Positions 570-42,218 of a stretch of DNA of 64,000 nt are shown here, one piece after another. Position numbers and translations under genes: made by a program. The DNA lies in assembly GCA_964621305.1 (NCBI GenBank), contig CAZUOM010000003.1:14589-78588 (forward strand), read 5' to 3'. Position 1 is the first letter of the stretch. Each line of letters opens with the position of its first letter. The notes beneath the pieces are model-generated. The model was not told the DNA's origin, did no database searches, and saw nothing but the letters and a program-made list of their open reading frames with translations. This DNA is from an uncultured Gammaproteobacteria bacterium (GTDB lineage Bacteria; Patescibacteriota; Microgenomatia; UBA10105; UBA927).

Positions 570-2216
570 TTACCGTGATGCGTTGACGATACCAAAATGT
601 GCCAGTTTTTCGGTTGATCGAATTGACTGGGGAATATCGTCGAAAAAATCAACCAAGAGGGAGCGCGTTTGGCCCATCTCACTCGTCCAATCTATGGGAC
701 GGAAGGTAAAGCGATCAAAGCTTTTGACGTGATAAAAGGCATCTGCCGTAAGCGGGTAGCGAACTGCGCTTTGTTGATACAGATGTGGTGGGTAGCTCGT
801 GTAAAACAGGAGAAATATATACGGTGAGTACTCCGGGTGTGTGATAACGACTGGTTTTTGTCGATATTCTTCTTGCAAAATCAGATCCGTCAATTTTTTA
901 TACGGGGCTCCCCAGTGACTGGCTTCATTTTTGGGGAAGTTGACGAAATACTGGTTTAGGTAGTAGCTAATGTTGAGAAGAAACACGATGCTGACAATGA
1001 TGATACCGGCCTTTTGGATCTGTGGCTTTTGCAGCGTCTTTAGTAGCGTCATGATGCCGATGGCAGTGAGAATCGGTGGTAGTGGGTAGATGGGGAACAT
1101 ACGATTGGTGTGGGGTGCATCCTTGGTGATGCTTGCCGCTATCGGACTTATGAAAATCCACCAGAGGAGAAACGTGTAAGGAAGTTTTTTTCTTTTCTGT
1201 ATAAGGATAAGAATCCCAAGGTAAAAGAATACTGCCTCAACCACGTAAAGGTTTCCCATGCCTTCGATATTGTGCGCGCGATTGGTGCCGCCACGGAGAA
1301 ATAGGAACGTGGGTCCAAAGGAGGCAAGGTAGTTTCTGGTTACTGTTTGGATGACGTAGGTTACGCGGTTATATCGCAGTCGTGTTATTAACGCATTTGG
1401 GTTGCCGCTTGAGAGCCTCGGTAGTTCAATTTTTGCGTGAATGACGGACGGATCGCCAAAGATACTTATACCAGCAAGCTTCGTCCTATCCGCATTATGG
1501 AAAGTTTTAGAGAGGATCCCGGCTGGTAAGGTTACGAGGATGATGAGAGCAACTAGGGAAAAACGATTCCGCGGTATTTGACTCCTGAACAAAACTACAA
1601 GTCCTGCAATAAGGAGAGAACTTGCAACGTGGTTGCCGTGGTAGGTGAAGTACGGCAGTGTGAGAAACAAAGCAGAGAACGGAAGCACCCTATGTTGTTT
1701 GAGTCCTTTGAAGAACAGGAGAAGTCCGACAGTAGTCAAAAAAACGGCGACGTTGGACTCAGACTCAACTCGTGAGAGGTGGAGGTGCCAGGGGGAGATG
1801 GCCAACAACAGCGAAGCTGTTATTGGAATGCCAAATGACCAATGCCAAATGTCAAATAAATCTTTTTTATTACGAAAAAGTTCCTTTACTAAAAAAAACG
1901 TTATGAATACAGTAAGTGTTCCGGCAATTGCAGATGGAAGGCGGACGGCGAGTTCAGTTAAACCGAATATCGCTACAAACGGCATGGTGGTATAGATATA
2001 GAGCGGGAGCTTCCAGTCGCCGAAAGATTGAAAGGAGATTGGCCATGACCTGCCGTATTCATCTTTGCCGGTTGTGATAAGCGAATATGCGCTGTAGCCG
2101 ATGGATGCTTCGTCGCGATTGACTCCGGGTGGGATCGTGTCAAGCTTATAGAGACGAAGGAAGGACGCTACTAGCGTTATGACAAAAAGAAGGGAGAGAA
2201 TAAATTTTGATTTCAT
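570..2216 (-). CDS. GT39/PMT_2 (ArnT-like) polytopic membrane glycosyltransferase, paralog 1
   Basis: 548-aa ORF. N-terminal RLYKLD..P.G..RDEA.IGYSAYSL..TGKDEYG plus KLPLY motif and C-terminal FRPIDW are shared with 7462..9105, 9106..10788 and 10785..12347. Multi-TM hydrophobic profile. Confidence 0.7.
   Translation of the reverse strand: MKSKFILSLLFVITLVASFLRLYKLDTIPPGVNRDEASIGYSAYSLITTGKDEYGRSWPISFQSFGDWKLPLYIYTTMPFVAIFGLTELAVRLPSAIAGTLTVFITFFLVKELFRNKKDLFDIWHWSFGIPITASLLLAISPWHLHLSRVESESNVAVFLTTVGLLLFFKGLKQHRVLPFSALFLTLPYFTYHGNHVASSLLIAGLVVLFRSQIPRNRFSLVALIILVTLPAGILSKTFHNADRTKLAGISIFGDPSVIHAKIELPRLSSGNPNALITRLRYNRVTYVIQTVTRNYLASFGPTFLFLRGGTNRAHNIEGMGNLYVVEAVFFYLGILILIQKRKKLPYTFLLWWIFISPIAASITKDAPHTNRMFPIYPLPPILTAIGIMTLLKTLQKPQIQKAGIIIVSIVFLLNISYYLNQYFVNFPKNEASHWGAPYKKLTDLILQEEYRQKPVVITHPEYSPYIFLLFYTSYPPHLYQQSAVRYPLTADAFYHVKSFDRFTFRPIDWTSEMGQTRSLLVDFFDDIPQSIRSTEKLAHFGIVNASR
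1788..1907. repeat. 120-bp inverted repeat copy A (inside GT39 paralog 1, minus strand)
   Basis: 119/120 nt identical to the reverse complement of 7771..7890. Both encode the same 40-aa block; antisense ORFs 1645..1995(+) and 7683..7994(-) are mirror artefacts of this repeat. Confidence 0.85.
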
Positions 2217-4573
2217 GCGTTTCTTTTATATCGCAGCTTGCGTAAAACAATAAGCGTTATCACGATGCTTACGAGAGTTACCACCTTCCCAATTTTTACC
2301 GAAAGCGGGTCGTAGATGAAAAAAATCGAATGTTTTCCAGCCGGTACATAAACCGCGCGAAAAGCGAAGTCAGCCCTAAGAATCGGTGTTTGGGTTCCGT
2401 CGATGGTGGCTTTCCAGCCCGGATAGAAGCTATCGGAGAGAAACAACAGTTGCGGTGCCACGTCTTCCGTTTCTATATCAACTTTTGTCGGAGAGTAGTG
2501 AGAAACTTTCACATCTTTTCGCGTTCCCGGCTCGACTGGTTTTTCGATGACAGAAGACAGGAGGATAGTATCCTTGGGGGAAAAGGAGGGGTCAAAAAAA
2601 CGATGGGAGAACTCCTCCTTAGACTGGTATGTTTCATACTTGCCGGAAAGAAACGCTCTAGGGAGCGCGTTTATATTTTTATACAAAATCCATCCACTAG
2701 ACCCCTCTGTAACAGTAAATTGTGAGGGAGGGATGGTTTTCTCTGAATTGTTATTTTCCACGTGATCTAAGAGAAAGCGAGTACCTAAAAGGTTAAGGAT
2801 TCGCAGGCGATAGTGATTGACAGCAAGATCGCCACCGTCCGTTGGAGCAAGGCGCGCATCAGAGCGCGTATCCCGGCTGAAACGCTCAAGAAGTCTGCCG
2901 TCATCGCTAGCGTGAATAAACTCGCCGTACCAGCGCGGGTAGAGGGGGTCATACCCCTCGGCAGAAAAGATTCGGTACTGGGTTGGGAAATTTGCCTCGA
3001 TGGTCGCGCTACCGAACGACCAAAAGCGGTCGATGCCAGTTTTTTCCCTTATGGTTTTTAAAATAGGAACCAATGGAAAGACGAGCTCTTTTGGCACAAA
3101 GGGGTTGAATTTTTGGAACGATTGCCACAACTGTACAACATGGACTAGAAGGAGCATTCCTAAAATCACTGGTGCGTATTTTGGTTTCTTGGACCAAAGC
3201 AGAAGGAGAAAAATGGATGTAACCAGAATGGTTGAGGTTATAAGAAGTGGATTTATTTGGAGTAATTTCGGACCAGTTGCGACGACAATCCAGAGAAGGG
3301 TCGTGATGACGACCAGAGGGGTTCCCGCAGTAAGCACGCTAGCGACCTTTAGCCGATTTTTCATCCATGCATCAAGGCCGAAACCCGCAGCTAGTGCAAG
3401 AGATAACTGAAAAAGGAATACCACAAGCGTTGGGCTGCCAGACGAAAGAATTGGGAGGTTAAGTCGATAGACTAACTCAGTTGCCGGATTTCGGGTGATA
3501 AAGATAAGGATGACCCCGCTGGCTACAAGAAAAAATTTAGCTAGCCGATCCAACTTCTGAAAAAGGAGCAGACAAACAAAAATGAGTGGAATCAAACCGA
3601 TGTTGGTAACTTTTCCCACATACGTGTCGGATGGCCAATAGGAGCGGGTTGCCGGGTTTCCAAATAAATCTTGCACCAGGAGCATGATAAGCTGCCATGG
3701 TTGAATAAGAACTTTGTTCAATATTTCGTTGACATCCAGTGGAGTCCTTGCCGAGTAAAGAATAAGCTCAATACCTGGAATTAACTGCACTGCAGCAACT
3801 CCAATTGATAAGATCATAAAGACTAGTACCTTTGCACTCTGCTTTAGTGCCGGTAGCCTGAACCAGGCATAGATTGCGGTAAAGAGGAATGCGTAAAAGG
3901 CCAACTGCGGATGTCCAGCCAAAAGTGAAAAAGTTAATCCGATGGCTAGGATTGCCCACCATTTCGTTACTGTTTGCTCCCTTATTCCTTCGATTGCCAA
4001 AAGCAACAAAGGCAACCAGGCGACAACGTGGCCTATGGTGTTGTACTCGATCCAGACGGTCATAAATGACCCGAAGGCGTAAGAAAGCGCAGATAACCAT
4101 GAAGCAGGCGGCGACAGTCTAATTTTTCGACAATAAAGATAAAGGAATACCAACGCCAGAGTAGGCTGCACGACAACCAGGATGGACCAGGCGAGGGGAT
4201 CAGGGAAGAAAAAGAAAAGGATGTTAAGTGGATAGAGTGCGGCGGATTGGAAGTTGGCAAGCAGTGGGCTGCCGGAAAAATTGTATGGATTCCAAAGTGG
4301 TAGTTTGCCTTCTTTAAGCAAATGTACAGAAAGCGACCTCCATGGGTAGAGCTGTCGAAGCACGTCAAAATATTGTGCCTTGTGTGGGTAGGAGCCAGGA
4401 TTGTAGCCCAGGAAAGAATAGTTTCTCCACGGCCGATACTCAGAGATAAGAAGATCACCCGGAAACGGTAGATGACCAAAGAGGAACGTTTTGTAAAAAA
4501 ATATGGCGATTGCGGCACAAATAATCGCGACTGGGACAAATCGTTTCATATTTTTCTTTTTCGGAAAATCCAT
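2213..4573 (-). CDS. YfhO-family polytopic membrane protein (long form, 786 aa)
   Basis: N-terminal LPFPGDLL...PLWNPYNFSGSPLLANFQSAALYPLN and C-terminal FYPGWKATIDG are typical of the YfhO family. Start overlaps the stop of 570..2216 (ATGA). Many TM segments. Confidence 0.7.
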   Translation of the reverse strand: MDFPKKKNMKRFVPVAIICAAIAIFFYKTFLFGHLPFPGDLLISEYRPWRNYSFLGYNPGSYPHKAQYFDVLRQLYPWRSLSVHLLKEGKLPLWNPYNFSGSPLLANFQSAALYPLNILFFFFPDPLAWSILVVVQPTLALVFLYLYCRKIRLSPPASWLSALSYAFGSFMTVWIEYNTIGHVVAWLPLLLLAIEGIREQTVTKWWAILAIGLTFSLLAGHPQLAFYAFLFTAIYAWFRLPALKQSAKVLVFMILSIGVAAVQLIPGIELILYSARTPLDVNEILNKVLIQPWQLIMLLVQDLFGNPATRSYWPSDTYVGKVTNIGLIPLIFVCLLLFQKLDRLAKFFLVASGVILIFITRNPATELVYRLNLPILSSGSPTLVVFLFQLSLALAAGFGLDAWMKNRLKVASVLTAGTPLVVITTLLWIVVATGPKLLQINPLLITSTILVTSIFLLLLWSKKPKYAPVILGMLLLVHVVQLWQSFQKFNPFVPKELVFPLVPILKTIREKTGIDRFWSFGSATIEANFPTQYRIFSAEGYDPLYPRWYGEFIHASDDGRLLERFSRDTRSDARLAPTDGGDLAVNHYRLRILNLLGTRFLLDHVENNNSEKTIPPSQFTVTEGSSGWILYKNINALPRAFLSGKYETYQSKEEFSHRFFDPSFSPKDTILLSSVIEKPVEPGTRKDVKVSHYSPTKVDIETEDVAPQLLFLSDSFYPGWKATIDGTQTPILRADFAFRAVYVPAGKHSIFFIYDPLSVKIGKVVTLVSIVITLIVLRKLRYKRNA

Positions 4574-6150
4574 AAGAGTGCTAGCGCAGCCAGAGTGGTT
4601 GCGGAAAGAAGCTCACCCAGGAGTTGGACCTTGCTTTTTTCAAAAGAGACCTTTACGCGGTGAGATCCTTCAGGAACGATATACGTGATCAACCCGCGCC
4701 AATTTTGATCTTGGAATTCGATCGGCACTTTTACGCGATCGACATATACTCGCCAGCCTGGAAAATACTGGGTGTGATCCACGAGACGCACGCCGCTTGC
4801 GGCGCGAACTGTGTAGGTGTGGAGGTTTGAGCGCTTCATAATATTTTCGACCTGGCCTTTTCCTTCAACGATTTCTGCTGGCGCGTTCGGGTACCTCTTG
4901 GCCGGGCCGGCTGACCAGATGAGATCAGTTTCGCCGAAGTAGGTCGTGTTGAGGGGATAGTTCCAGAATTGCGCCTCATTGGTGAGGCGATCATATCCAA
5001 GCGGTGGCTTCCAAAAGGCGACAGTTGCAAGGACGGCTAGACCTAGGAAAATAGGAAAACTTTTTTGAAACCACTTGAATTCAAACAGGAACCGTGCTGA
5101 AAGCGCACTTAGCAATAAAACGACTGATAAAAATCGCCAGGGGAACTGAAATTGGCGAAGGAATGCGATATTCTCCCAGGCGGATCTGGATATTTCAGTC
5201 ATGAAAACAACTGAACCGGCAAAAAGCAAAAGACAGAAGGCAAAAAGTCGTCGAAGGACTTTATCTTTTTTCTTCCGAAAAAAGAAAAGAACTGTCGCTG
5301 CTAGCGCAACAGTCTGGGCAAGTCCAATTTGCACAGAAACCCCACCGACATGAAACGCAGGGTCGTTAGTAATGTTTGGGAAAAGAAGAGGAGCGAGGGG
5401 CACGAAGTGTGTTTTATACAGGTCTTTCATGAAGAGGTTTCCGTAGGTGTACTTGTGTTCGAAAAGAGCCGGTAGCCAATAGAAGGAAGAGAGAAGAAGT
5501 CCAACGAGGAGCGCTGTTGCGGCAATTACAAACACGCGCTTCTTTTTGGCAAAAAAGAGGGAGAAAGCTATGCAAATACCAAAATAAACCAGGCTCACTG
5601 AGTTGTGGGAAATAATAAGAAGAAAACTTCCAACCGCGGTCAAAAGGAGATACCTAGGGAGAAAACTTTCCATAAGGCGAGTGATGCCCAGGAGCGTTAA
5701 CGGAAGAAAAGTATAGGTAAAAAGCTCGCCGAAGCTTCCGCGTACGGCAAGTTCCACCAGTCTAAATGGCGCAAATTGATACAGAACGGTTGTGACAAGT
5801 GCAACGTTTTCGTTTTTGAAAAACGCTTTGGCAAATTGGTACATAAAAACGCCAGCGGCAAGGTAGCTTATTGCCATAACCAGCTTGAATGTGGTCACGA
5901 GCCCCACCCCGAGGGCAAGAAACAGTGAGGAGACCAAATACGGCGTGTGATAGATGAAGTTAAATAGTGGCAGTCCGTAACCGTAGTTGAGGTCCCCTGC
6001 CCAGCGGGGTAGGATCTGCCAGTCAACGAGAGCCTTGTAGTATGCCGCCATCCGCGCCAGATGCACCGGCCCGTCGTGAGTATGTGGGAGATCGGAAGTT
6101 ACGAAGAAGCTAATGAGAGGGACAGATGAAAGGAAGAGAATTAATTTCAT
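4546..6150 (-). CDS. YfhO-like short-type polytopic membrane protein
   Basis: 534 aa. N-terminal THDGPVHLARMAAYY..PRWAGDLNYGYGLPLFNF and C-terminal YFPGWRVYVDRV resemble YfhO termini and the paralogs at 13834 and 17897. Confidence 0.65.
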   Translation of the reverse strand: MKLILFLSSVPLISFFVTSDLPHTHDGPVHLARMAAYYKALVDWQILPRWAGDLNYGYGLPLFNFIYHTPYLVSSLFLALGVGLVTTFKLVMAISYLAAGVFMYQFAKAFFKNENVALVTTVLYQFAPFRLVELAVRGSFGELFTYTFLPLTLLGITRLMESFLPRYLLLTAVGSFLLIISHNSVSLVYFGICIAFSLFFAKKKRVFVIAATALLVGLLLSSFYWLPALFEHKYTYGNLFMKDLYKTHFVPLAPLLFPNITNDPAFHVGGVSVQIGLAQTVALAATVLFFFRKKKDKVLRRLFAFCLLLFAGSVVFMTEISRSAWENIAFLRQFQFPWRFLSVVLLLSALSARFLFEFKWFQKSFPIFLGLAVLATVAFWKPPLGYDRLTNEAQFWNYPLNTTYFGETDLIWSAGPAKRYPNAPAEIVEGKGQVENIMKRSNLHTYTVRAASGVRLVDHTQYFPGWRVYVDRVKVPIEFQDQNWRGLITYIVPEGSHRVKVSFEKSKVQLLGELLSATTLAALALLWIFRKRKI

Positions 6151-6209
6151 GTCCCTATACTACATCATCAGTTGGCGGCGACACCACTTTTTCGATACAA
6201 TGGATTTGT

Positions 6210-7469
6210 ATGGGCTGGGGGATGATATCTTCGCTACTCCTTGCCGTTTTTTCCATTCCGGTGGTTACGGCCTATCGGATAGCTCCGATTGAGGGAACAC
6301 CCTATTGGCTCTTTGGCTTTCTCTTTTTGTTCCTCATGTGGAACCTTGTGATTTACCTATCTCCAACATTGCTTCCCACCTGGTTGAAAACTCAAAAAGT
6401 ACGATTAGCCCTTCTTGCGGCTTGCGTTTCCATCGTTTTGGGGGGAGCAACATGGACTGCAGTTGTCGATCGGTCGCGCGTTGCACCGGTGTATGGCGTC
6501 CATGACATTATTCTCCAGCAGGAAGCAGCTATGCGATATCTCTTGGCCGGTAAAAATCCGTATAAAGAAAAGTACTTTGGGACACCGGTTGAACAGTTTA
6601 ATTATGATGAGCCGGGAAACACCGAGGCTATCAATCCGGCACTCTTTCACTTCGTCATGCCGCCTTGGTATCTCTTATTCCCCATAGGGATTTATTTTTT
6701 AACTACACCAATCCTGGGATACTTCGATGGACGAATGGCTCTTCTTGTTGCGGCCTTTGGATTGCTTTTGGTAGTTTGGAGATGGTTTCGCAATCGGGAA
6801 ATTGCCAGCCTTGCCATTGTCACCGCGGTACTTTCACCGGCAACCGTGCATTTTGCCATTGAAGGCAGAAGTGACATATTTGCCCTCTTTTGGTTCGTAT
6901 GGGCGCTTTACCTACTTGACCGAAACCGGATTTGGTCCTCTGCCATTATGTTTGGATTAGCGCTCATGAGCAAGCAGACGATCTGGTTTGCCGCGCCAGT
7001 GTACCTGGCACTTTTGGTATTTAGTAAACGCTCAACAAAACAAGTTGTAACAGCTGTTGGCGTGGTTGCTATGGTTGTGCTAATTCTGGCAGCGCCCTTT
7101 ATTCTCTGGGATGCGAATGCATTCATTGACAGCACCGTTCTGTATCTTTCTGGGGCAGCAGCTGGGAGTTATCCCGTATCTGGTTATGGGCTGGGGATGC
7201 TGCTTACCCAACTAGGCGTAATTAAAGATATTCACGGCTATTACCCGTTCATCATCTGGCAGATAGTTTTTGGATTGCCATGGCTTTTCGTACTTCTCCG
7301 TTGGTTCCGTCAAAAACCGACCAGCGGCCGCTTACTGGTTGCCTACGCACTTTTCCTCTCTGTCATGTGGTACATGAGCCGATACTTTAATAACAGTCAC
7401 CTGGGATATCTATCAACCGTGTTCGCCCTCGGCGGATTAAAGATATTCGACGAGGAACACCATGACTAG
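6210..7469 (+). CDS. Integral membrane protein, possibly DUF2029/GT87-like glycosyltransferase
   Basis: Long multi-TM ORF. The ORF track starts at 6126 and would overlap the divergent start of 4546..6150, so an in-frame ATG at 6210 (MGWGMISS...) is preferred. Weak resemblance to 16813..17931. Confidence 0.5.
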   Translation: MGWGMISSLLLAVFSIPVVTAYRIAPIEGTPYWLFGFLFLFLMWNLVIYLSPTLLPTWLKTQKVRLALLAACVSIVLGGATWTAVVDRSRVAPVYGVHDIILQQEAAMRYLLAGKNPYKEKYFGTPVEQFNYDEPGNTEAINPALFHFVMPPWYLLFPIGIYFLTTPILGYFDGRMALLVAAFGLLLVVWRWFRNREIASLAIVTAVLSPATVHFAIEGRSDIFALFWFVWALYLLDRNRIWSSAIMFGLALMSKQTIWFAAPVYLALLVFSKRSTKQVVTAVGVVAMVVLILAAPFILWDANAFIDSTVLYLSGAAAGSYPVSGYGLGMLLTQLGVIKDIHGYYPFIIWQIVFGLPWLFVLLRWFRQKPTSGRLLVAYALFLSVMWYMSRYFNNSHLGYLSTVFALGGLKIFDEEHHD

Positions 7470-9105
7470 GTCAACGAAAATATTGCTCGTTGCGATTGTC
7501 CTTCTCTCTTTTTTTCTTCGTTTTTACAAGGTAACAGAGAACCCGCCGTCTCTATCGTGGGATGAAGTGTCTATTGGTTACAACGCCTACAGCATCCTCA
7601 AAAGTGGCCGCGACGAGCACGGGAGATTTCTTCCGCTGGACACCTTTGTTGCCTACGGAGATTACAAGCCACCACTGTCAATCTATGCTACTGTACCATT
7701 TGTTGCACTACTGGGACTCAACGAACTTGCCGTACGATTACCCTCCGTTATCGCAGGAACACTAACAGTTTTCATAACGTTTTTTTTAGTAAAGGAACTT
7801 TTTCGTAATAAAAAAGATTTATTTGACATTTGGCATTGGTCATTTGGCATTCCAATAACAGCTTCGCTGTTGTTGGCCATCTCTCCCTGGCATATTCTTC
7901 TCTCACGTGCCGGTTTTGAAGCAAACATCGCATTATTTTTCGTCGTCGTCGGTGTGTATCTCGTTTTGCGCGCACGAGACGACCCAAGGCTCATTCATTT
8001 TTGTTGGTTGCCATTTGTTGCAGGGGTTTACACCTTCAACAGCACACGTTACTTCGTCCTTCTTATGGCGGCGGGACTGGTTGTTTTCTGCCGTCACCAA
8101 TTTCTCAAAAACAAACGACAACTAGTTACGGGAGCTCTAGTTGCATTAATAGCACTTCTTCCGATTGCACCGCACCTGGTTTCCAAAGAGTCACGTCTTC
8201 GTTTTGACGAAGTGAGCATTTTCAACGAGCTGGAGTTAATTTTGCGATCAAATGAGCGAGCGGCGGTAGACGGTAGTCCGTGGTGGGGGAGGATCCTACA
8301 CAACCGGAGAATTGGCTATATGCGAAGTTACCTTACCCACTTTTTTGATCATCTCGAGCCGCGGTTTTTGTTTATTGCCGGAGATGGCAATCCAAAGTTT
8401 TCCATCCAGGAGGTTGGCCAGCTCTATTGGGTGGAAGCACCTTTGCTTTTGGTTGGGATATTTTTGCTGTTTCGCTCCAACAAAGGTATAGCAACACTTC
8501 TTTTGTTTTGGCTGCTGGCAGCTATTGTGCCCGCAGCAGTTGCTCGGCAGACTCCGCATGCGCTGCGGATAGAGAATAGCTTGCCGACGTGGCAGATTAT
8601 AATAGCGTTTGCGATAATTTCAAATTTCAAATTTCAAATTTCAAATTGGAAGAAAAATTCAATGAGGATATTGATTATTGGAGCTTACCTATTTAACTTT
8701 TTGTACTTTTGGCACCATTATATGGCCCATTACCCGAAGGATTATTCCGGAGAATGGCAGTATGGATATCGGGAGGCCATCAGTTTTGTATCCGGAATAA
8801 AAGATCAATACGACACGATTGTTATTTCCGAAAGCATTGGCAGGCCCTACGCGTATGTCCTGTTTTACGAGCGGACTGACCCAAAAACATATTGGGATAC
8901 AAAGAACTCAACATTTGATGCTAGTGGATTTTATCTTGTTTTTGGCTTTGACAAGTATCGTTTCACCCGCGTCGGTGTGGAAGAAGGAAAATACAAAGGT
9001 CGAGTTTTGTATGTTCTTCCTCCACATGAAGTACCCGCTGACGCGCGCATACTTGCCAGTGTGAAGCGGTTGAACGGGGAACACGCACTTGTGGTATTTG
9101 ACTAA
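7462..9105 (+). CDS. GT39/PMT_2 (ArnT-like) membrane glycosyltransferase, paralog 2
   Basis: 547 aa. Shares the N-terminal motif and a 48-aa identical block (IAGTLTVFITFFLVKELFRNKKDLFDIWHWSFGIPITASLLLAISPWH) with 570..2216. C-terminal FTRVGVEEG region is family-like. Confidence 0.7.
   Translation: MTRSTKILLVAIVLLSFFLRFYKVTENPPSLSWDEVSIGYNAYSILKSGRDEHGRFLPLDTFVAYGDYKPPLSIYATVPFVALLGLNELAVRLPSVIAGTLTVFITFFLVKELFRNKKDLFDIWHWSFGIPITASLLLAISPWHILLSRAGFEANIALFFVVVGVYLVLRARDDPRLIHFCWLPFVAGVYTFNSTRYFVLLMAAGLVVFCRHQFLKNKRQLVTGALVALIALLPIAPHLVSKESRLRFDEVSIFNELELILRSNERAAVDGSPWWGRILHNRRIGYMRSYLTHFFDHLEPRFLFIAGDGNPKFSIQEVGQLYWVEAPLLLVGIFLLFRSNKGIATLLLFWLLAAIVPAAVARQTPHALRIENSLPTWQIIIAFAIISNFKFQISNWKKNSMRILIIGAYLFNFLYFWHHYMAHYPKDYSGEWQYGYREAISFVSGIKDQYDTIVISESIGRPYAYVLFYERTDPKTYWDTKNSTFDASGFYLVFGFDKYRFTRVGVEEGKYKGRVLYVLPPHEVPADARILASVKRLNGEHALVVFD
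7771..7890. repeat. 120-bp inverted repeat copy B (inside GT39 paralog 2, plus strand)
   Basis: See 1788..1907. The single mismatch is ccagggGgag versus ccagggAgag. Confidence 0.85.
8617..8644 (+). repeat. Heptanucleotide tandem repeat (atttcaa)x4 inside GT39 paralog 2 CDS
   Basis: Directly visible as atttcaaatttcaaatttcaaatttcaa, encoding ISNFKFQISN in a loop inserted relative to paralogs 1 and 4. Confidence 0.8.
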
Positions 9106-10788
9106 ATGAAAAATAGTAAACACATTCAGAAAGTTTTTATCGTGTGCATCGTGATCCTTGCAGCAAGTATCCGGCTGTGGCAGTTGGGGAAGGTGCCGCC
9201 TAGTCCGGATTGGGACGAGGCGGCGTTGGGGTACAATGCCTACTCTATTCTAAAAACTGGAAAGGATGAATACGGAACGTTTCTGCCACGCGTGCTTCGT
9301 TCGTTTGACGATTACAAGCCGCCTCTCTATGCGTACTTGGCAATTCCATCGGTTGCAGTCTTTGGCCTTACTGTTTGGTCAGTACGACTCCCATCGGCTA
9401 TTGTCGGTACGCTTGCGGTATTGGGCACGTTTTTTTTGGTGAGAGAACTGTTTTTTAATTTCTCATCTCGACACTCGAAACCCGACACTCGAAACCCGAC
9501 ACTCGCGCTGGTAAGCGCACTCTTGCTTGCCCTCTCTCCCTGGCATATCCAATTCTCCAGGATCGCATTTGAGGCAAACATTGCTATCGGCATCAACATA
9601 TGGGTCCTCTATTTATTCTTTAAGGGGTTACGCGATCGCGGGTGGCTTCTTGTTAGTGCACTGCTCTTTGGCCTTGGCCTCTATGCCTATCATAGCGAAC
9701 GGATCTTTTTACCTCTCTTGGCGTTAACCGTGGCTGTTCTTTATCGGCGTGAATTGTTTATACATCGACGGTCGGTTGCTGCCGCTGTTGTTGTGGGGGT
9801 TTTGGTGGTTGCGCCTCTTGCACCAGTTATCTTTGATCACACGTCTTTTATGCGTCTTAAAGGAACCGGTTCTCTTTCAGATAAAACAGGACTGCTTGCC
9901 AACAGTGCCCGTAAGTTACAGGAAGATCTGGCTAGTGGCGATCGGTTGGGTGCTTTGTTGGAAAATCGGCGCATCGTCTATGCAAAAAAACTTCTAGAGG
10001 GGTACTTGACGCACTACTCGTTTCGGTGGCTGTTTGTTACCGGAGATAACGATCGCCACCATGCGCCAGATAATGCGCTTTTGTACCTCGTGGAGCTCCC
10101 ATTTCTTCTTTTGGGCATGTACGTCGTGTTTATGAAGATAGGCGGTCGTCTTGGTAAACTTCTTGGGGTTTGGTTTCTGATTGCGCCCCTTGCTGCGTCA
10201 CCGACGACGGAAGTACCGCATGCAATTCGCTCCATCGTATTTCTTCCTATTTTTCAGATTTTTACGGCAGTAGGAATTATTGCTGCGATATCAAATATCA
10301 AATATCAAATATCAAATATACATATCAAATATCAAAAATTATTAGCGTACGGGGTCAGCGTGCTTACTATTTTATTTTTGATACTTAATATTTCATATTA
10401 TTTCCACATGTACTTCGGACACCAGAATGGCGAGTTTTCGAAGTTTTGGCAGTACGGTTATGAGCAGGCGGTCGCGTACGCCAAAGCGCATTACGAAGAG
10501 TATCAAAAAATCGTAGTATCGACCAAACTCGAGCAGCCGCACATGTTTTTCCTTTTCTTTCTGCCGTATGACCCGAAAAAGTACCTGGCAGAAGGTGGCA
10601 CCGCATCCGGAGGCTTTGCTGAGGCAAACAATAAGTTTGACAAATTTGAATTTCGGCCAATCCGGTGGGATAAAGAGGAACGCGACGGCACGACGCTTTA
10701 CATCGGAACGTTTAAAGAAATCCATGGAGACCTTCTTGCCGCAATATTTAACGTGGATGGAACGGAGGCTATCCGTATCGCCAAATGA
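9106..10788 (+). CDS. GT39/PMT_2 (ArnT-like) membrane glycosyltransferase, paralog 3
   Basis: 560 aa. N-terminal RLWQLGKVPPSPDWDEAALGYNAYSILKTGKDEYG plus YKPPLYAY, C-terminal FRPIRW. Start abuts the previous stop. Confidence 0.7.
   Translation: MKNSKHIQKVFIVCIVILAASIRLWQLGKVPPSPDWDEAALGYNAYSILKTGKDEYGTFLPRVLRSFDDYKPPLYAYLAIPSVAVFGLTVWSVRLPSAIVGTLAVLGTFFLVRELFFNFSSRHSKPDTRNPTLALVSALLLALSPWHIQFSRIAFEANIAIGINIWVLYLFFKGLRDRGWLLVSALLFGLGLYAYHSERIFLPLLALTVAVLYRRELFIHRRSVAAAVVVGVLVVAPLAPVIFDHTSFMRLKGTGSLSDKTGLLANSARKLQEDLASGDRLGALLENRRIVYAKKLLEGYLTHYSFRWLFVTGDNDRHHAPDNALLYLVELPFLLLGMYVVFMKIGGRLGKLLGVWFLIAPLAASPTTEVPHAIRSIVFLPIFQIFTAVGIIAAISNIKYQISNIHIKYQKLLAYGVSVLTILFLILNISYYFHMYFGHQNGEFSKFWQYGYEQAVAYAKAHYEEYQKIVVSTKLEQPHMFFLFFLPYDPKKYLAEGGTASGGFAEANNKFDKFEFRPIRWDKEERDGTTLYIGTFKEIHGDLLAAIFNVDGTEAIRIAK
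9469..9505 (+). repeat. 14-bp tandem repeat (cgacactcgaaacc) x2.6 inside GT39 paralog 3 CDS
   Basis: cgacactcgaaacc cgacactcgaaacc cgacactcg, encoding HSKPDTRNPTL. Contains the same acactcga core as the heptamer array at 15764. Confidence 0.75.
10288..10336 (+). repeat. Heptanucleotide tandem repeat (atatcaa), 4 perfect plus 3 degenerate units, inside GT39 paralog 3 CDS
   Basis: atatcaa x4, then atataca, tatcaaa, tatcaaa. Encodes ISNIKYQISNIHIKYQ at the position equivalent to the repeat in paralog 2. Confidence 0.8.
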
Positions 10789-12347
10789 AGAAATTCATTT
10801 TGCTTATTTTGGTTCTTGCGACATTTTTGCGCACGTATAGGTTGTCCTCGGTCCCGCCGAGCCCTTCGTTGGATGAGGCATCAATCGGTTACAACGCCTA
10901 CTCCATTCTCAAAACTGGCAATGATGAGTACGGCTATCGGTTTCCTATCCTCCTTCGTGCCTACGATGACTGGCGACCGGCAGGCTACGCATATTTGACG
11001 CTACCCTTCGTTGGGTTACTGGGTTTAACAGTCAAAGCAGTACGCTTGCCGTCGGTCATCATGTCTGTCGTGACTATTTGGTTGGTGTATGTGTGGTTTA
11101 GTAAACTGTTTCAAAAACAGAAAGAAGGGGAGGCTATTGCATTGATTGTCGCACTGCTCGTTGCAATTTCACCTTGGCACATTTACCTTTCGCGGCTTGG
11201 TCATGAGGTGAACGCCGGACTGTTTACCGTAGTTCTTGGTGGATACTTCCTTATCAAGTTTTTGGGAGCAAAGCAATCCAAGTGGATTATTGGTGCAGCA
11301 GTGGCGTTTGCGCTTTCGTTCTATACCTACCAAAGCGAGAAATTGGTGGTGCCAATGCTCGTCGTTGCCGCGACGTTGCTCTTTTTCAAAGAGTTTTGGA
11401 AGGTTAAAAAATATACACTCGCCGCAGTAATTGTTGGGTTGGTTATTTCCCTTCCTGCAGTTATCGCATCACTTTCGCCGGAGGGCCTGATCCGCTTACG
11501 CGCTACATCGGTTTTTTCTTCGGCAGCCGACACGAGGTTAGTAACAAAGGTTGGTATTTTAGCATCACAATATCTGACACACTTTTCCCCTGGCTGGCTG
11601 TTTACAGGTGGGGCAGCCGAAAGCCACAAAGTGCCAGGGCTTGGGCCCCTGTGGTTTTGGGAGGCGCCGTTTATTCTTCTGGGCGCTGCAGCATTTTTAA
11701 GAAGTGCGCTTGATCGTCGCATGAAAGCATTTCTTCTGGTCTGGTTTCTGTCTGCTCCTCTTCCTGCAGCCATCAGCAATCAGGTGCCGCATGCTATGCG
11801 CGCATTTACGTTTCTGCCTATCTGGCAGCTCTTTGGTGCATTTGGCCTCGTGACATTTTTTGTTGTAGCCGCCAAAAGAGTTAGAAGAGAGTATCTCTGG
11901 CTTTTAGCAAGTATCGTGATCTCAGTCAGTGTTGGCTATTTTATGAGGCAGTACTTTGACGTTTTTCGACGACAACACTCCTCCTCCTTCCAATACGCGT
12001 TGGCACACTCACTTCAATACTCTATGGAGCGCGATCATAGCTATCGAAGCATTATTGTTTCCAATAGCGCCGCCCTTTACCAATCATACATGTTTTACTT
12101 ATTTTTTAGCGGTTTTGATCCGGCAACGTACCAGCGTTTCGGCGGGACGGTTTCGGGGGGTTACGCGGAGACGCATCGGATTGGAAAATATCTTTTTCGG
12201 CCGATTGATTGGATAAGGGAAAAAATCGTGTGTGGAAATCTTTATCTTGATACTATTGAGACTATTCCTAAAGATCGAGGAGTAACACGCGTTGTGAATA
12301 ACCTGGACGCAGTTCCTGCCATCGGCATAGTTGATCCATGCTTATGA
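10785..12347 (+). CDS. GT39/PMT_2 (ArnT-like) membrane glycosyltransferase, paralog 4
   Basis: 520 aa. N-terminal RTYRLSSVPPSPSLDEASIGYNAYSILKTGNDEYG, C-terminal FRPIDW. ATGA overlap with the previous gene. Confidence 0.7.
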   Translation: MKKFILLILVLATFLRTYRLSSVPPSPSLDEASIGYNAYSILKTGNDEYGYRFPILLRAYDDWRPAGYAYLTLPFVGLLGLTVKAVRLPSVIMSVVTIWLVYVWFSKLFQKQKEGEAIALIVALLVAISPWHIYLSRLGHEVNAGLFTVVLGGYFLIKFLGAKQSKWIIGAAVAFALSFYTYQSEKLVVPMLVVAATLLFFKEFWKVKKYTLAAVIVGLVISLPAVIASLSPEGLIRLRATSVFSSAADTRLVTKVGILASQYLTHFSPGWLFTGGAAESHKVPGLGPLWFWEAPFILLGAAAFLRSALDRRMKAFLLVWFLSAPLPAAISNQVPHAMRAFTFLPIWQLFGAFGLVTFFVVAAKRVRREYLWLLASIVISVSVGYFMRQYFDVFRRQHSSSFQYALAHSLQYSMERDHSYRSIIVSNSAALYQSYMFYLFFSGFDPATYQRFGGTVSGGYAETHRIGKYLFRPIDWIREKIVCGNLYLDTIETIPKDRGVTRVVNNLDAVPAIGIVDPCL

Positions 12348-13837: not shown

Positions 13838-15480
13838 AAAAACTTATTTGGGTTGTTTTGTTTTTGCTGACCTTGGTGCCCATCCTGAATCTTGCGCATC
13901 CAGGCCTGCCCCTCACACATGACGGTCAGGATCACGTGGCTCGGATTGCCAACTTTTACCAGTCAATTTTGGAGGGCAACGCAATCCCGCGTTGGGCGGG
14001 GAATCTCAATTGGGGATACGGACACCCGATTTTGATGTTTCTTTATCCGTTTCCTTCCTACGTTGCCTCGTTTTTTCATTGGATTGGATTTTCTTTGGTT
14101 GACGCGACTAAGTTGGTTTTTGGATTGAGTTTTGTTGCGAGCGTGTTGGCGATGTACCTGTGGTTATCGTGCTGGTATGGTAGAGCTCCCGCGTTTGTTG
14201 GCGCCGCCCTCTATGGTTTTGCACCCTACCGGTTTGTTGATCTCTCTGTGCGTGGGGCGATAGGCGAGCATGTAGCATTCGTTTTTCCGCCGCTCATTTG
14301 TTGGGGATTGCACCTGTTGGCCCGCAGAGAACGACCCTTTCGCTCAGCCCTTCTTGTATCTTTGGGAACCGCGGGATTGCTTCTTTCCCATAACGCATTA
14401 AGCGTGATGTTTCTGCCGTTCGTTGTTCTCTACTTCGTCTACCTCGGTTTCTTTGGAGCAAAGAACCGTCTGCAGTTTTTTATGCTTGGTTCTTGGTACT
14501 TAGTTCTTGGCTTTTTGCTCGCTGCATTTTTTTGGGCTCCTGCTTTTTTTGAGGGCAAATATACCCTGCGAGATATTGTCACCAAAGGTGAGTACGCCAC
14601 TCGCTTTGTTTCTTGGCAGTGGTTTCTTTCTTCAACTTGGAATTATGGTGGGGGCGATGAGTTTAGCAAAGAACTAGGGCTTCTTCAGTGGTTGGGTGTG
14701 GTTGGGTCAGTACTCGTTTTTTTCAAAACAAAAGAGAAAAAATTTCGTGTCGCAATAGTAAGCTTGCTGACTCTGTTTTTCTTCTTGCTGTTTCTTATGA
14801 CAAGTTATGCAAGGGTCATCTGGGATAGCATCACCATTCTCCAGAAATTTCAGTTCCCCTGGCGGCTTTTGAGTGTTTCTGTTTTTCTTTCTTCCATATT
14901 GGGGACAATCGTAATCTCCAAACTACCAAAACAATTCGCTTTATTTACGTGCTTTTTTGTTCCATTGACGTTATTGGTTACGACCAACACTATGTGGGGT
15001 CCGAAAGACTATCTTGTAAAACCTGAATCGTTTTACACGGGGGTCTACCCTGGTACTACCGATACCGGCGAAAGCAGCCCCATCTGGTCAGTGCGGTTTA
15101 TGGAACAAGAAGCGAAAGCACCCTACGAGGTCATCGAAGGCGAGGCAGCAATTGCCCAGATCTCTCGCAGTACGACTAAGCACGTCTTTTCTGTCGATGC
15201 AAAAAAGAAATCCAGAATTGTTGATAATACACTCTACTTTCCCGGATGGACAGTGCTAGTCGACGGGAAAACGCTACCTCCATTGGACATCTGGTTCCAG
15301 GACCCCCAGTATCGGGGACTTATTAACTTTTGGCTAGAGAAGGGGAAGCACACGGTTACACTCGAATTTCGGGAAACGAAACTGCGCCGTTTTGCAGATA
15401 GCGTAAGCGTATTCGGGTTGCTCCTCCTCGTTGGGACTGTTACCATTGGGAAACCTTGGGTATGGCTAAAATCTCGGTAG
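13834..15480 (+). CDS. YfhO-like short-type polytopic membrane protein
   Basis: 548 aa. LTHDGQDHVARIANFYQ..PRWAGNLNWGYGHPILMFLYPFPSY and C-terminal YFPGWTVLVDGK, paralog of 4546..6150. Confidence 0.65.
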   Translation: MKKLIWVVLFLLTLVPILNLAHPGLPLTHDGQDHVARIANFYQSILEGNAIPRWAGNLNWGYGHPILMFLYPFPSYVASFFHWIGFSLVDATKLVFGLSFVASVLAMYLWLSCWYGRAPAFVGAALYGFAPYRFVDLSVRGAIGEHVAFVFPPLICWGLHLLARRERPFRSALLVSLGTAGLLLSHNALSVMFLPFVVLYFVYLGFFGAKNRLQFFMLGSWYLVLGFLLAAFFWAPAFFEGKYTLRDIVTKGEYATRFVSWQWFLSSTWNYGGGDEFSKELGLLQWLGVVGSVLVFFKTKEKKFRVAIVSLLTLFFFLLFLMTSYARVIWDSITILQKFQFPWRLLSVSVFLSSILGTIVISKLPKQFALFTCFFVPLTLLVTTNTMWGPKDYLVKPESFYTGVYPGTTDTGESSPIWSVRFMEQEAKAPYEVIEGEAAIAQISRSTTKHVFSVDAKKKSRIVDNTLYFPGWTVLVDGKTLPPLDIWFQDPQYRGLINFWLEKGKHTVTLEFRETKLRRFADSVSVFGLLLLVGTVTIGKPWVWLKSR

Positions 15481-16241
15481 CAATCGCTACATACAACGAA
15501 GAGCAAAATATACGAGCGTGTTTGGATTCGGTACGCTCTTGGGTAGATGAGATCGTTGTGGTTGATGGTGAGTCGACGGATAAAACCGTGGAGATTGCAA
15601 AACGATATAAAGCGAAAGTCATCGCTAGCGATAATCCACCGATTTTTCATATTAATAAACAAAAAGCCGTTGACACATGCACTGGGGACTGGATTTTTCA
15701 ACTCGACGCCGACGAAGTCGTGACTCTAGAGCTTGCAAATGAAATTCAAGAAATTGTTTCTAACACTCGACACTCGACACTCGACACTCGACGCAACGGT
15801 CATTATGTTCCACGTAAAAACTTTTTTCTCGGCCACTGGCTGAGAAAGGGCGGGCAGTATCCTGACTACGTCATACGTTTATTTCGGCGGGGGAAGGGAA
15901 AATTTCCGAGTAAAAGCGTGCATGAACAAATCGAAATTGACGGCAATGTCGGTTATCTTAAAAATCCATTATTACATTACACATCTAGAACACTCGGCGA
16001 TTACTGGAAAAAGGCACGTGCCTATACTTCGTTGGAGGCCCAGGAGTTTAAACAAAGCGAGCTTGCTTTGAATATTTTTACATACGTTGAGTACAATCTA
16101 TTGAAACCGACCATGACATTACTCAGTCTATTTCTGCGCCACAAAGGATTCCTCGATGGTATCTACGGCTTTCTCTTTTCCCTCTTTTCCGCTCTTCATC
16201 ATCCAATCGCATTTTGGAAAAACGCAACGATGCAAAAATAA
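15456..16241 (+). CDS. GT2 family glycosyltransferase
   Basis: ISVAIATYNEEQNIRACLDSV...VVVDGESTDKT...QLDADE, a typical GT-A (family 2) N-terminal domain with a DxD-like motif. Confidence 0.75.
   Translation: MGMAKISVAIATYNEEQNIRACLDSVRSWVDEIVVVDGESTDKTVEIAKRYKAKVIASDNPPIFHINKQKAVDTCTGDWIFQLDADEVVTLELANEIQEIVSNTRHSTLDTRRNGHYVPRKNFFLGHWLRKGGQYPDYVIRLFRRGKGKFPSKSVHEQIEIDGNVGYLKNPLLHYTSRTLGDYWKKARAYTSLEAQEFKQSELALNIFTYVEYNLLKPTMTLLSLFLRHKGFLDGIYGFLFSLFSALHHPIAFWKNATMQK
15764..15791 (+). repeat. Heptanucleotide tandem repeat (cactcga)x4 inside GT2 CDS
   Basis: cactcgacactcgacactcgacactcga, encoding TRHSTLDTR. Confidence 0.8.
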
Positions 16242-19549: not shown

Positions 19550-20543
19550 TGCGTTACAGAAGTACAAAAAGAGACATTCGTACCTTTTTTTTACTCGAGG
19601 AGATTTGGTACCCAAAAATGCAGACTTAGTCCATTATCCCTATTTTGATCCATTTTTCCCAACGCTGCCGCTTTTGAAACCAAAGCCTGTTGCGGTTACG
19701 GTCCATGACCTTATTCCATTGGTATTTCCAGATAAATTTCCAGCCGGATTAAGAGGTTTACTGAAATGGCAGTTGCAGCGGTTGTCTCTCTTGGGAGCCG
19801 ATCGTATCATCGCTGACTCAGCCCAGTCTGCGCAGGATATCGCGCGTTACTCTGGAGTTTCGCATGAGCGTATCGACGTGGTGCACCTTGCCCCAGGGGA
19901 AAGATTTCGAAAGATGGATAAGAAGGATAAGATGAATCAGAGGGGAATAGAACGGGTGAAGGCAAAGCACCACTTACCCGAGCACTTCATTCTCTACGTG
20001 GGAGATGTCAATTGGAACAAAAACATCCACGGAATGCTTGAAGCATTCCGAAATCTCAAAACTCAAAACTCAAAACTCAAAACTAAATTAGTTTTCGTTG
20101 GTGCCGCTTTTAAAAATAGTTTACTTGCTGAAACGAAGGATATCGACAACCATATCCATTCATTAAACGTAACTGACGATGTAATGAAACTGGGTTTTGT
20201 GCCGGATGAAGATTTACCGGCTATTTATTCGCTTGCAAGCGTTTACATCCAACCGTCGTTTTATGAAGGTTTTGGGCTGCCGGTTCTGGAGGCGATGGCA
20301 TGCGGGTGCCCAGTGGTGTGTTCGTACGTTGCCAGCCTTCGTGAGATTGGCGGGCCGGCCATTTCTATCGATCCCGACGACCCCGCCAACATCGCTTCAG
20401 GCATTTTGCGCGTGTTGTCCTTGTCTAAAGAGCAGAGAAATAAGCTGATAGGTGACCAGCGACAATGGGCAAAACAGTTTACCTGGAGGAATGTTGCGGC
20501 CCTAACCATGAAGGCCTATGAAAAAGTTTTGGCAAACAAATAG
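19467..20543 (+). CDS. GT4 (group 1) glycosyltransferase
   Basis: N-terminal MRVAIDISPL...GTGFYTRNL and C-terminal EGFGLPVLEAMACGCPVVCS (E-x7-E region) are typical of GT4 retaining glycosyltransferases. Confidence 0.75.
   Translation: MRVAIDISPLSSNHKVRGTGFYTRNLIDALQKYKKRHSYLFFTRGDLVPKNADLVHYPYFDPFFPTLPLLKPKPVAVTVHDLIPLVFPDKFPAGLRGLLKWQLQRLSLLGADRIIADSAQSAQDIARYSGVSHERIDVVHLAPGERFRKMDKKDKMNQRGIERVKAKHHLPEHFILYVGDVNWNKNIHGMLEAFRNLKTQNSKLKTKLVFVGAAFKNSLLAETKDIDNHIHSLNVTDDVMKLGFVPDEDLPAIYSLASVYIQPSFYEGFGLPVLEAMACGCPVVCSYVASLREIGGPAISIDPDDPANIASGILRVLSLSKEQRNKLIGDQRQWAKQFTWRNVAALTMKAYEKVLANK
20053..20087 (+). repeat. Heptanucleotide tandem repeat (aactcaa)x3 with degenerate flanking units inside GT4 CDS
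   Basis: atctcaa aactcaa aactcaa aactcaa aactaaa, encoding NLKTQNSKLKTK. Confidence 0.8.
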
Positions 20544-29599: not shown

Positions 29600-29929
29600 C
29601 TAAAATTTGACTTTAACATTAATTATAAAAATCGCCCACATGAGTAAATATAACAGAGTGCCAAGATTTTCGGCTATATCGTGTCTGGAAAAAAGAACGG
29701 CAAGGATTGAGAGGAAGAGAAAAAAAATGGCAATAACCAAATAAGCCCTGGTTCTAAATTTGAGGATAATGGTTGCAAGAATTATCATGATAAAAATCTT
29801 ATTCCTAGTCGTAAAGACAAGGCTTGAGTAGGGAAGAATAGACAAAAGGTCCACAACGAAATAGCTCAAGGTAAAAGCAAGTAATTTCCCGCTGTTTTGA
29901 CTGATAAACTCTTTAATCTTCTGCCACAT
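29600..29929 (-). CDS. Small membrane protein (GtrA-like?)
   Basis: 109 aa, 3-4 hydrophobic segments. Start overlaps the stop of the upstream large membrane protein. Family uncertain. Confidence 0.3.
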   Translation of the reverse strand: MWQKIKEFISQNSGKLLAFTLSYFVVDLLSILPYSSLVFTTRNKIFIMIILATIILKFRTRAYLVIAIFFLFLSILAVLFSRHDIAENLGTLLYLLMWAIFIINVKVKF

Positions 29930-33368: not shown

Positions 33369-33408
33369 AATTACTTCTTAACGAATAATTAACCCCTACA
33401 ATAATTTT

Positions 33409-36317: not shown

Positions 36318-36336
36318 AAAATAACTGCCTCAAATA

Positions 36337-37359
36337 TTAATCTTTATAGTTTTCTAACTCTGTAAACAAATAATAGTAATACAACAGCCGAACCTTTTTC
36401 TTTACCCGTTTCATAAGTTTTTTGTCGCTGATCTTTCGTAACTTCTCCTGGACTTTTTTTCTGTTGTTCAAGGTTTTCCCCAGATGAGTCAGATTCCAAA
36501 AGACAGCCTGTTGGATTGAGATTGCAACTCCAACTCTACCTCGTAAGAGAAAGGAAAACACTACGGCCTGGGTTAAGAGTAGATGGATGGGAAGCGTCTT
36601 AATAAGCTCCCATAGCCCGAGGTTTTTGATAATTGCGCTGATCCTATTCTTAAAGGAATGAAAATTAATGAAAGCGGTGGGAAGCTTTCTAGTGGTACTG
36701 CCTCCTTTGTGGAATATCGATGTGGTCGGCACGTACTTAATAATGTAGCCAGCCAACCAAACTCTCCAGCAAAAATCTGTCTCCTCAAAATATAAAAAGA
36801 ACTCATCGTCAAAAAGTCCAACTTTGTCTATAACCTCGCGCTTAATAAGCATGCAGGAGCCATTTGCAGAAAAAATTTCAGAGGATTCATTGTATTTTTT
36901 AAGTTTTGGGTTTTTATCATAACCGAAGTGGTATAAAAACCCCGAACTAGTCAAGAATGCCCCTGCGCTTTGGAGCTTCCTAGAGTCTACAAAAATTATT
37001 TTTGGCTGAACCACGCCAAGAATTTTTTCTTTTTCTAGTGCAGCCACCAGTTCAGTGAGAAGATTGGGCTGGACGACAGTGTCGTCGTTTAGCAACAAAA
37101 CATATTCTCCCTTTGTTTCCTTTACCCCCAAATTATTGCCTTTTGCAAAACCCAGGTTCTTTTTTTTCTCTAGAAGTTTTACCCGGGGATAATGTCTTTT
37201 AATGTATTCAATGGAGCCGTCGGTAGAGCCGTGGTCAACAATAATCATCTCAACGTTTTTATATTTAAGTTTCAAAAGAGACGGGAGAAGATCTCTCAAG
37301 TTTTCTAAACCATTTAAGTTAATGGTGACTATTGAAACCAAGCCTTTTTGGGAAGCCAT
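36337..37359 (-). CDS. GT2 family glycosyltransferase
   Basis: VSIVTINLNGLENLRDLLPSL...IIVDHGSTDGS...NLGFAKGNNLG...LLNDDT, a GT-A fold family 2. Confidence 0.75.
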   Translation of the reverse strand: MASQKGLVSIVTINLNGLENLRDLLPSLLKLKYKNVEMIIVDHGSTDGSIEYIKRHYPRVKLLEKKKNLGFAKGNNLGVKETKGEYVLLLNDDTVVQPNLLTELVAALEKEKILGVVQPKIIFVDSRKLQSAGAFLTSSGFLYHFGYDKNPKLKKYNESSEIFSANGSCMLIKREVIDKVGLFDDEFFLYFEETDFCWRVWLAGYIIKYVPTTSIFHKGGSTTRKLPTAFINFHSFKNRISAIIKNLGLWELIKTLPIHLLLTQAVVFSFLLRGRVGVAISIQQAVFWNLTHLGKTLNNRKKVQEKLRKISDKKLMKRVKKKVRLLYYYYLFTELENYKD

Positions 37360-37428
37360 AACTTTCTAGTATTGTATACCGATAAGATGAAGCATTAAAG
37401 CTTTCTAGACATAAAGTTTTTCGTCATT

Positions 37429-42216: not shown

Positions 42217-42218
42217 TG

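Follow-up and report, generated by a model that had tools for sequence, protein, structure and literature searches.

Segmental gene conversion among surface-protein paralogs is a documented mechanism of variation in Helicobacter pylori (babA/babB and sabA/sabB) and in Neisseria (pilE/pilS). Shufflons and invertons (Rci, Hin, Fim) combine a dedicated recombinase with short conserved recognition repeats, and both orientations of the invertible segment coexist. In Haemophilus and Neisseria, glycosyltransferase genes contain contingency loci made of simple sequence repeats (SSRs) with units of four to seven nucleotides, such as the heptanucleotide repeats of Neisseria pglE. In Salmonella, the inversely oriented duplicates tufA and tufB, which lie 762 kb from each other and share ~99% identity along 1.2 kb, undergo RecA-dependent conversion about once per 1e5-1e6 generations (PMC5485169). 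The present analysis concerns a 64-kb stretch of contig CAZUOM010000003.1 (hereafter the window) from an uncultivated, groundwater-type bacterium, in which two oppositely oriented glycosyltransferase genes of the GT39/GT-C type, here called A and B, share a nearly identical block of 120 nt. This block is very probably the footprint of a recent non-reciprocal copy, that is of ectopic gene conversion, between paralogs which diverged anciently.

As in the case of Salmonella tufA-tufB, inverse copies are found on one chromosome, contiguous non-reciprocal tracts keep the paralogs more alike than would be expected and the repeats could in principle mediate inversion. Unlike the tuf genes, the two GT39 genes are only ~49% identical and 5.9 kb apart, an island of only ~120 nt is exchanged, and this island is lineage-specific with partner genes that vary (A/B, A/D, B/C). 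The locus has in common with H. pylori babA/babB and Neisseria pilE/pilS the partial-gene mosaicism of envelope-related paralogs by intragenomic recombination; in those systems antigenic or binding regions are changed, whereas here a membrane helix-loop-helix is exchanged and the copies become more alike. Ectopic gene conversion and the concerted evolution of paralogs are well-known phenomena, of which the window provides a new instance in a poorly studied phylum. No description of GT39 conversion or of heptanucleotide arrays in genomes of the Candidate Phyla Radiation (CPR) was found in the literature searched.

The block shared by genes A and B

Gene A (570..2216, minus strand; A-type, 548 aa) is the last gene of a leftward PTPS_related-YfhO-A unit and gene B (7462..9105, plus strand; B-type, 547 aa) follows a GT87 gene in a rightward operon. 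The bases 1788-1907 of the window match the reverse complement of 7771-7890 at 119 of 120 positions; the sole mismatch is at position 1794, and 1795-1907 form a perfect run of 113 nt. The original prediction, made from the bare sequence, had described a near-perfect inverted repeat of 120 bp in two opposite GT39 paralogs, and this description proved accurate. Self-alignment of the window by blastn also recovered the repeat (1786-1959/7892-7720, 174 nt at 90.8% identity), and an inverted-repeat search delimited a wider zone of decaying similarity around the block (arms 1738-2035 and 7643-7940, 298 nt, 78%). The two arms, 5.9 kb apart on opposite strands, occupy the identical position in their genes (nt 310-429): the left arm (1788..1907, minus strand) covers codons 104-143 of gene A, up to the SPW of a conserved SPWH motif, and the right arm (7771..7890, plus strand) covers codons 104-143 of gene B.

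Within the block, the 40 residues of A and B are all identical. Codon usage was compared at informative codons, defined as those encoding identical residues in A and B with Met and Trp excluded: the same codon was found at 36 of 37 positions within the block vs 55 of 159 (35%) outside (binomial P = 6e-16), in agreement with the synonymous contrast that had been anticipated. The 37 consecutive identical codons 104-140 constitute a contiguous tract with definable ends. The upstream edge is abrupt, since the codons 92-103 located directly before the block (R-L-P-S-A/V-I-A-G-T-L-T-V) encode nearly the same protein sequence (11 of 12 residues identical) and yet 10 of the 12 codons differ. Over the 20 residues of the upstream flank, 17 are identical and the codons of only 4 of these 17 are the same. 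At the other end, A-B identity stops in the conserved SPWH motif, just before the motif typical of each paralog, and the downstream flank is divergent (9 of 20 residues identical). The suggestion that the flanks are similar at the protein level only, with many synonymous differences, is thus correct for the upstream flank; the downstream one is simply divergent. Compared over their length, the two proteins are 36% identical, and their codon-aligned genes reach an identity of 49% in full and of 45% once the block is excluded; the G+C content of the block is 35% vs 45-46% for genes A and B.

The paralogs C (9106-10788, plus strand) and D (10785-12347, plus strand) do not carry the block in the alignment (best 60-nt identity to A or B of 0.78 at most), so that it is not an instance of ordinary family-wide conservation. 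Among 110 related loci the best match reaches only ~77%, which argues in the same way against cross-genome conservation. An identical block conserved across all GT39 paralogs of related strains, named in the original prediction as part of what would contradict it, is therefore not what C, D and the relatives display. A foreign source was also considered for this low-GC block; no near-identical sequence occurs in the same 110 loci, and such an origin is neither supported nor excluded.

The assignment of A and B to the GT-C superfamily was examined by profile and structure comparisons. The Pfam PMT score of gene A (E = 1e-3, 19.2 bits) is below the cut-off of 22.7 bits, and homologues of A carry PF02366/PF13231; gene B is above the cut-off for both PMT_2 (32.9 bits) and PMT (27.6 bits). 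The AlphaFold model of A, with a predicted local distance difference test (pLDDT) score of 83.5 and a predicted template modelling (pTM) score of 0.86, displays a GT-C multi-helix fold. Because the top Foldseek matches of this model are STT3, AglB, ArnT, Pmt4 and AftD (E values of 6e-8 to 7e-4), A is predicted to be a GT-C lipid-carrier-dependent glycosyltransferase. An acidic Asp-Glu motif is found in the predicted first extracytoplasmic loop of both proteins (NRDEASIGY in A, SWDEVSIGY in B), D34 and E35 being invariant in the alignment. The nearest homologues are 59% identical to A and 65% to B, and B orthologues 55-65%. In the protein database, B is filed under an unrelated 49-aa cluster representative, a quirk that makes it invisible to homology searches there; exact-protein look-ups of A and B did not return any other contig.

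In the model of A, the block covers the last third of helix 87-112, a loop at about residues 113-127, helix 128-138 and a short turn (141-144). The loop starts with R-N-K-K and is modelled with low confidence (pLDDT <50 at residues 119-125). Its coding sequence, at the centre of the block, is a degenerate heptanucleotide array detected by Tandem Repeats Finder (TRF) in gene A at 1827..1857 (minus strand; AATGCCA x4.4, 79% matches) and in gene B at 7821..7851 (plus strand; ATTTGGC x4.4), where it encodes ..FDIWHWSFGI.. The clearest type marker directly follows the block: SRVESESN in A-type and SRAGFEAN in B-type proteins. In a sequence search against solved structures, a weak STT3 match (E = 0.005) aligned SRVESESN of A with the acidic GSYDNE stretch of STT3, which hints at a cytoplasmic block loop and at a post-block motif that faces outward, on the catalytic side.

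The identity of the two arms could also be the result of a nucleotide-level constraint, exerted by a functional DNA or RNA element present in both genes, or of a parallel expansion of the heptanucleotide array in both loops. The block folds slightly better than its shuffled versions (z = -2.1) and the tandem array of its loop could have expanded independently in both genes. However, this z-score is weak, 8 of 200 shuffles folding at least equally well, and the identity exceeds the array by ~50 nt on the upstream side and by 39 nt on the downstream side, where the sequence encodes ordinary helices. Furthermore, the sequence is not conserved in orthologues, and no common structure or motif is visible in the loci examined. 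Constraint or parallel origin is therefore scarcely credible.

Recurrence of the homogenised segment in related genomes

The sample of relatives comprised 110 related loci (L001-L111; 1.45 Mb). All the within-locus pairs of GT39 paralogs (256 pairs, 110 loci) were codon-aligned and scanned with a 60-nt sliding window. Every pair with a best window identity of at least 0.85 has this window at the same place, with a start residue between 99 and 116, whereas the background maxima do not exceed 0.83 and fall on conserved motifs. The A/B pair of the window, which is inverted, reaches 1.00. It is followed by the inverted A/B pair of L025 (identical to L026 and L034; 0.98), the inverted A/D-like pair of L002 (0.97), the inverted A/B pair of L027 (identical to L028 and L054; 0.92), the directly oriented and adjacent B/C genes of L002 (0.88) and the inverted B/C-like pair of L038 (0.85). 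Four other Microgenomates genomes thus have paralogs homogenised in the same segment; the sequences involved differ and so, in some cases, do the partner genes. The block sequence is wholly different from genome to genome and the loop sequences are unrelated. The longest perfect common run, 113 nt in the A/B pair of the window, is followed by runs of 58, 52, 33, 23 and 17 nt in the other genomes, and the codon-level alignments of L025 and L027 display graded, older islands. Graded islands with shorter runs fit a scenario in which conversion would be repeated and then followed by decay.

The A-B identity of the segment was then compared within and between genomes. Within genomes it is 0.95, 0.89 and 0.83 in three of eight genomes, vs a maximum of 0.737 among 448 between-genome A-B comparisons. 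This within-genome excess is characteristic of concerted evolution, with gene conversion acting repeatedly on a single segment. The recent gene conversion put forward in the original prediction is well supported by the identical synonymous sites, by the contiguous and sharp-edged tract, by a within-genome A-B identity above that of any between-genome pair and by the four other genomes. Not all the loci are affected: in L111, which has the same loop type as the window, A and B are unconverted. L110 (genome of P0160) has this loop type as well, and in its region 2242-8720 no A-type GT39 gene follows PTPS_related-YfhO, a second, convergent YfhO being found there instead.

An assembly or polishing artefact, in which two non-identical segments would have been homogenised by the assembler or the contig would be chimeric, has to be weighed against these data. 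The window belongs to a metagenome-assembled NCBI contig of 120,600 bp that is recorded once in the protein database, and reads lying wholly inside a near-identical block can be assigned to the wrong copy. However, blocks occur at the same position in five genomes obtained by different groups and pipelines, and identical locus sequences come from separate sources (L025 from ENA and L026/L034 from JGI; L027 from NCBI and L028/L054 from JGI). In addition, one mismatch is retained inside the block and its flanks are unique. A repeat of 113 nt is also shorter than common maximum k-mers and read lengths, so that it should be possible to assemble through it. An artefact is thus highly improbable.

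The copy in the window is contiguous, recent and sharply bounded, the event recurs at one segment, and the N- and C-terminal types remain strictly separated: across the relatives, neither the N-terminal region with the catalytic loop nor the last 400 residues of the protein depart from their type. According to the proposed mechanism, ~113-120 nt of one gene would have overwritten the counterpart in the other. The copied tract would comprise half a membrane helix, the helix that follows and, between the two, a loop that is variable and probably cytoplasmic; it would end at SPWH. The event in the window would be one instance of a process recurring in this gene cluster of Microgenomates. Copying may proceed by recombinational repair (RecA-type repair or template switching); recA is not located in the window. 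Only the helix-loop-helix exchanges would survive, the others being removed by selection, and the segment should then be functionally interchangeable. The heptanucleotide array of the loop may be the fragile site at which the events start.

Several points weigh against gene conversion, or restrict what can be said of it. The DNA flanking the block is only ~58-65% identical between A and B, a poor homology for classical RecA-mediated invasion, and the tract of the window does not have graded edges. Because of these diverged flanks and ungraded edges, the initiating mechanism is uncertain and could be template switching or the loss of an older and wider island such as those of L025 and L027. The non-reciprocity of the transfer is inferred. 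Short-read assemblies cannot span much longer identical tracts, and the sample is presumably biased toward short ones. Donor and recipient were also sought: A-type as well as B-type orthologues display the loop type (KK..FSFxIWHLSFGIP) and the helix residues, so that the direction of the copy is not assignable.

In replication-based template switching, a strand would stall at the heptanucleotide array, jump to the inverted paralog via microhomology in the conserved flanking motifs, copy ~115 nt and return, and classical RecA double-strand-break repair would not be involved. Such a process would be compatible with the short and sharp-edged tract of the window, with flanks too diverged for efficient RecA pairing, with the bias toward inverted partners and with the presence of a tandem array, a plausible stalling site, at the centre of every block. 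On the other hand, the arms are 5.9-10 kb apart, and intra-fork switches, as known from quasipalindromes and template-switch mutagenesis, usually span far less. Moreover, the graded islands found elsewhere are as expected of repeated homologous conversion, and one converted pair is directly oriented. This mechanism is considered unlikely.

Possible inversion of the intervening segment, and heptanucleotide arrays

Exchange between the two arms would invert the segment 1908..7770 and swap residues 1-103 of A and B, as the original prediction had rightly deduced from the geometry. This segment contains the 5' 309 nt of A, a YfhO gene (2213-4573, minus strand), a PTPS_related membrane protein gene (PF10131; 4546-6150, minus strand), a GT87 gene (6126-7469, plus strand) and the 5' 309 nt of B, the three complete genes being assigned by Pfam. 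Two YfhO genes and a GT87-like gene had been announced between the arms; the YfhO gene at 2213-4573 and the GT87 gene were confirmed, and the gene at 4546-6150 turned out to encode the PTPS_related protein, not a YfhO. The longest-ORF (open reading frame) starts of the divergent PTPS_related and GT87 genes overlap by 25 nt, which implies that at least one true start codon is further in and that the common promoter region is very short.

It had also been suggested that the repeat acts as a recombination site which would generate chimeric glycosyltransferases in a shufflon-like way. In such an invertible switch, shufflon-like or RecA-driven, the inverted repeat would exist to flip 1908-7770, and the flip would in addition transfer C, D and the following genes from one of the two divergent transcription units to the other. 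The two arms form an in-frame inverted repeat that occupies corresponding codons of A and B and is perfect over 113 nt, so that any exchange would yield two intact chimeric ORFs, and, as in shufflons and invertons, inverted repeats lie in or next to genes whose ends an inversion would swap. Blocks were found in inverted pairs in 5 of 25 genome groups and in direct pairs in 1 of 48 (Fisher P = 0.016, a comparison confounded by which paralog types are inverted), and this excess could equally reflect the deletion-driven loss of direct repeats.

The search for a recombinase consisted of a Pfam scan of the window ORFs of at least 150 aa not nested antisense in a larger ORF, plus the ORF 124-501. 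None of the scanned ORFs matched a family of integrases, invertases, resolvases or transposases, and several of them are without any Pfam match. Unlike the repeats of shufflons and invertons, the arm sequence is not conserved between genomes, the best match of ~77% being incompatible with a recognition site, and neither an alternative orientation nor a chimera was seen. For the latter, 188 homologues (70 A-type and 118 B-type) were typed by their C-terminal signature and their N-termini were scored with type-specific profiles: none of the 188 is an N/C chimera, the N-terminal score gap always exceeding 40 bits in the direction expected from the C-terminus.

The gene order leads to the same view. 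Every block-carrying locus is in the same native order, and the divergent arrangement [.. C B GT87] <- -> [PTPS_related YfhO A] is kept in the Gottesmanbacteria-type loci L001, L002, L004, L009, L025, L027 and L111. The contigs L002 and L039, which are 99.5% identical and both belong to the L002 species, remain collinear across the A-side arm, and the B/C block of L002 joins directly oriented neighbours. The lack of a recombinase match among the ORFs of at least 150 aa, the unconserved block, the kept gene order, the lack of chimeras and the direct pair speak against the suggested recombination site, and a switch is very unlikely. A rare RecA-type inversion across the 113-bp perfect inverted repeat could physically take place; it is neither fixed nor evidently used.

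The array at the centre of the block belongs to a larger set of heptanucleotide repeats. Its 7-nt unit is read through three successive frames and gives a peptide with a periodicity of 7 residues. The equivalent loops of the relatives are encoded by heptamer arrays as well, namely (CATTTGG)n in L027, (AAATTGG)n in L038 and a perfect (TCACTTA)x4.9 array in both B and C of L002. At a TRF score of at least 40, the window contains 9 arrays of period 7, vs 0 in 30 local shuffles. Besides those of the block, TRF listed arrays (one of them of period 14) at 8616-8647, 9469-9505, 10288-10336, 15763-15792, 20051-20084 and 48624-48662, and weaker ones at 5219-5247, 14485-14510, 46531-46584, 47553-47577 and 54852-54876. 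The units of the window arrays are diverse, and most of these arrays are in-frame parts of GT-C, GT2 and GT4 genes; the array 46531-46584 is located just upstream of a gene that starts at 46590. Array lengths of, for instance, 4.3-4.9 or 7.1 copies are consistent with net insertions of 21 nt, which preserve the frame. In gene C, the array 9469-9505 (unit CGACACTCGAAACC) is found in the loop homologous to that of the block and contains the heptamer ACACTCG, which is repeated 4.3 times in the GT2 gene 15456-16241 (array 15763-15792).

Period 7 is by far the commonest tandem-repeat period in the related loci, with 78 arrays in the 1.45 Mb, mostly in frame within GT-C, GT2 and GT4 genes; 61 of the 78 are spanned by one in-frame tblastn match. 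Within GT39 genes, the arrays cluster at residues 113-134 and ~377-408. No frameshifted (OFF) allele was found at the arrays in the scan of related loci, and no 7-nt indel or difference in copy number appeared among near-identical loci, most of which are 100% identical and offer little power. The sole 'different frame' case, L029, is due to a 100-N scaffold gap. This gap breaks an A-type GT39 gene exactly inside its (ACTTCTC)n loop array (L029 2836-2984, minus strand), and the array that the assembler did not resolve may be long or variable.

As in SSR contingency loci, tandem arrays are found within glycosylation genes and the length of their unit is not divisible by 3. Unlike those of such loci, the arrays are short (~3-7 copies) and often degenerate (that of the block is 79% regular), and no copy-number polymorphism or frameshifted allele was found. 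The helix-loop-helix could conceivably be a programmed hypermutable site, in which the loop arrays of many GT-C, GT2 and GT4 genes in such ultra-small bacteria would act as contingency switches and the paralog-templated repair of breaks or stalls would leave the conversion blocks; we regard this as improbable. If it were the case, the gain or loss of one unit would cause a frameshift, the surface glycosylation of Microgenomates would be stochastically variable and the 113-bp inverted repeat might occasionally flip the segment.

Gene neighbourhood and meaning of the block

The homologues of A and B come from Patescibacteria/Microgenomates, the named ones being Gottesmanbacteria and Levybacteria. 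The first ~57 kb of the window form a glycosylation island with ~10 GT-C-type membrane proteins and many GT2 and GT4 genes, together with sugar epimerases/dehydratases, a DegT aminotransferase and methyltransferases. The G+C fraction of the part 30000-44000 is 0.35-0.42 vs ~0.46-0.50 elsewhere. This part harbours large ORFs without Pfam match at 29913-33368 (1151 aa) and 33409-35064 (551 aa), GT1, GT2 and methyltransferase genes and an 847-aa protein with an F5/8 type C (discoidin) domain (38774-41317), and may be a sub-cluster of separate origin. Two more small inverted repeats, I2 and I3, are present in the part 1-12 kb of the window (32-34 nt, 74-75% identity) and look like chance or family similarity.

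Beyond the island are found an AbiEii toxin gene and cohesin/dockerin proteins. The gene for the AbiEii-family nucleotidyltransferase toxin (59585-60424) is preceded by an overlapping 218-aa ORF (58932-59588) without Pfam match, in the position expected for an antitoxin. Three ORFs adjacent to each other encode a dockerin protein (60470-61636) and cohesin proteins (61620-62447 and 63012-63827), an unusual cell-surface scaffolding for a small-genome bacterium.

The window offers a clean textbook case of intragenomic gene conversion in a CPR (Patescibacteria) genome, and indicates that an identity of only about one half does not prevent homologous exchange between paralogs. It is also a warning for annotators and phylogeneticists, because this segment of the GT39 genes departs from the gene tree. 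The enrichment in heptamer arrays, if due to slippage, would suggest variable glycans on the surface of organisms whose presumed way of life is attachment to other cells. Finally, the recurrent homogenisation of the helix-loop-helix, together with an N-terminal catalytic loop and a C-terminal part that never mix, maps the interchangeable and the co-adapted parts of these enzymes.

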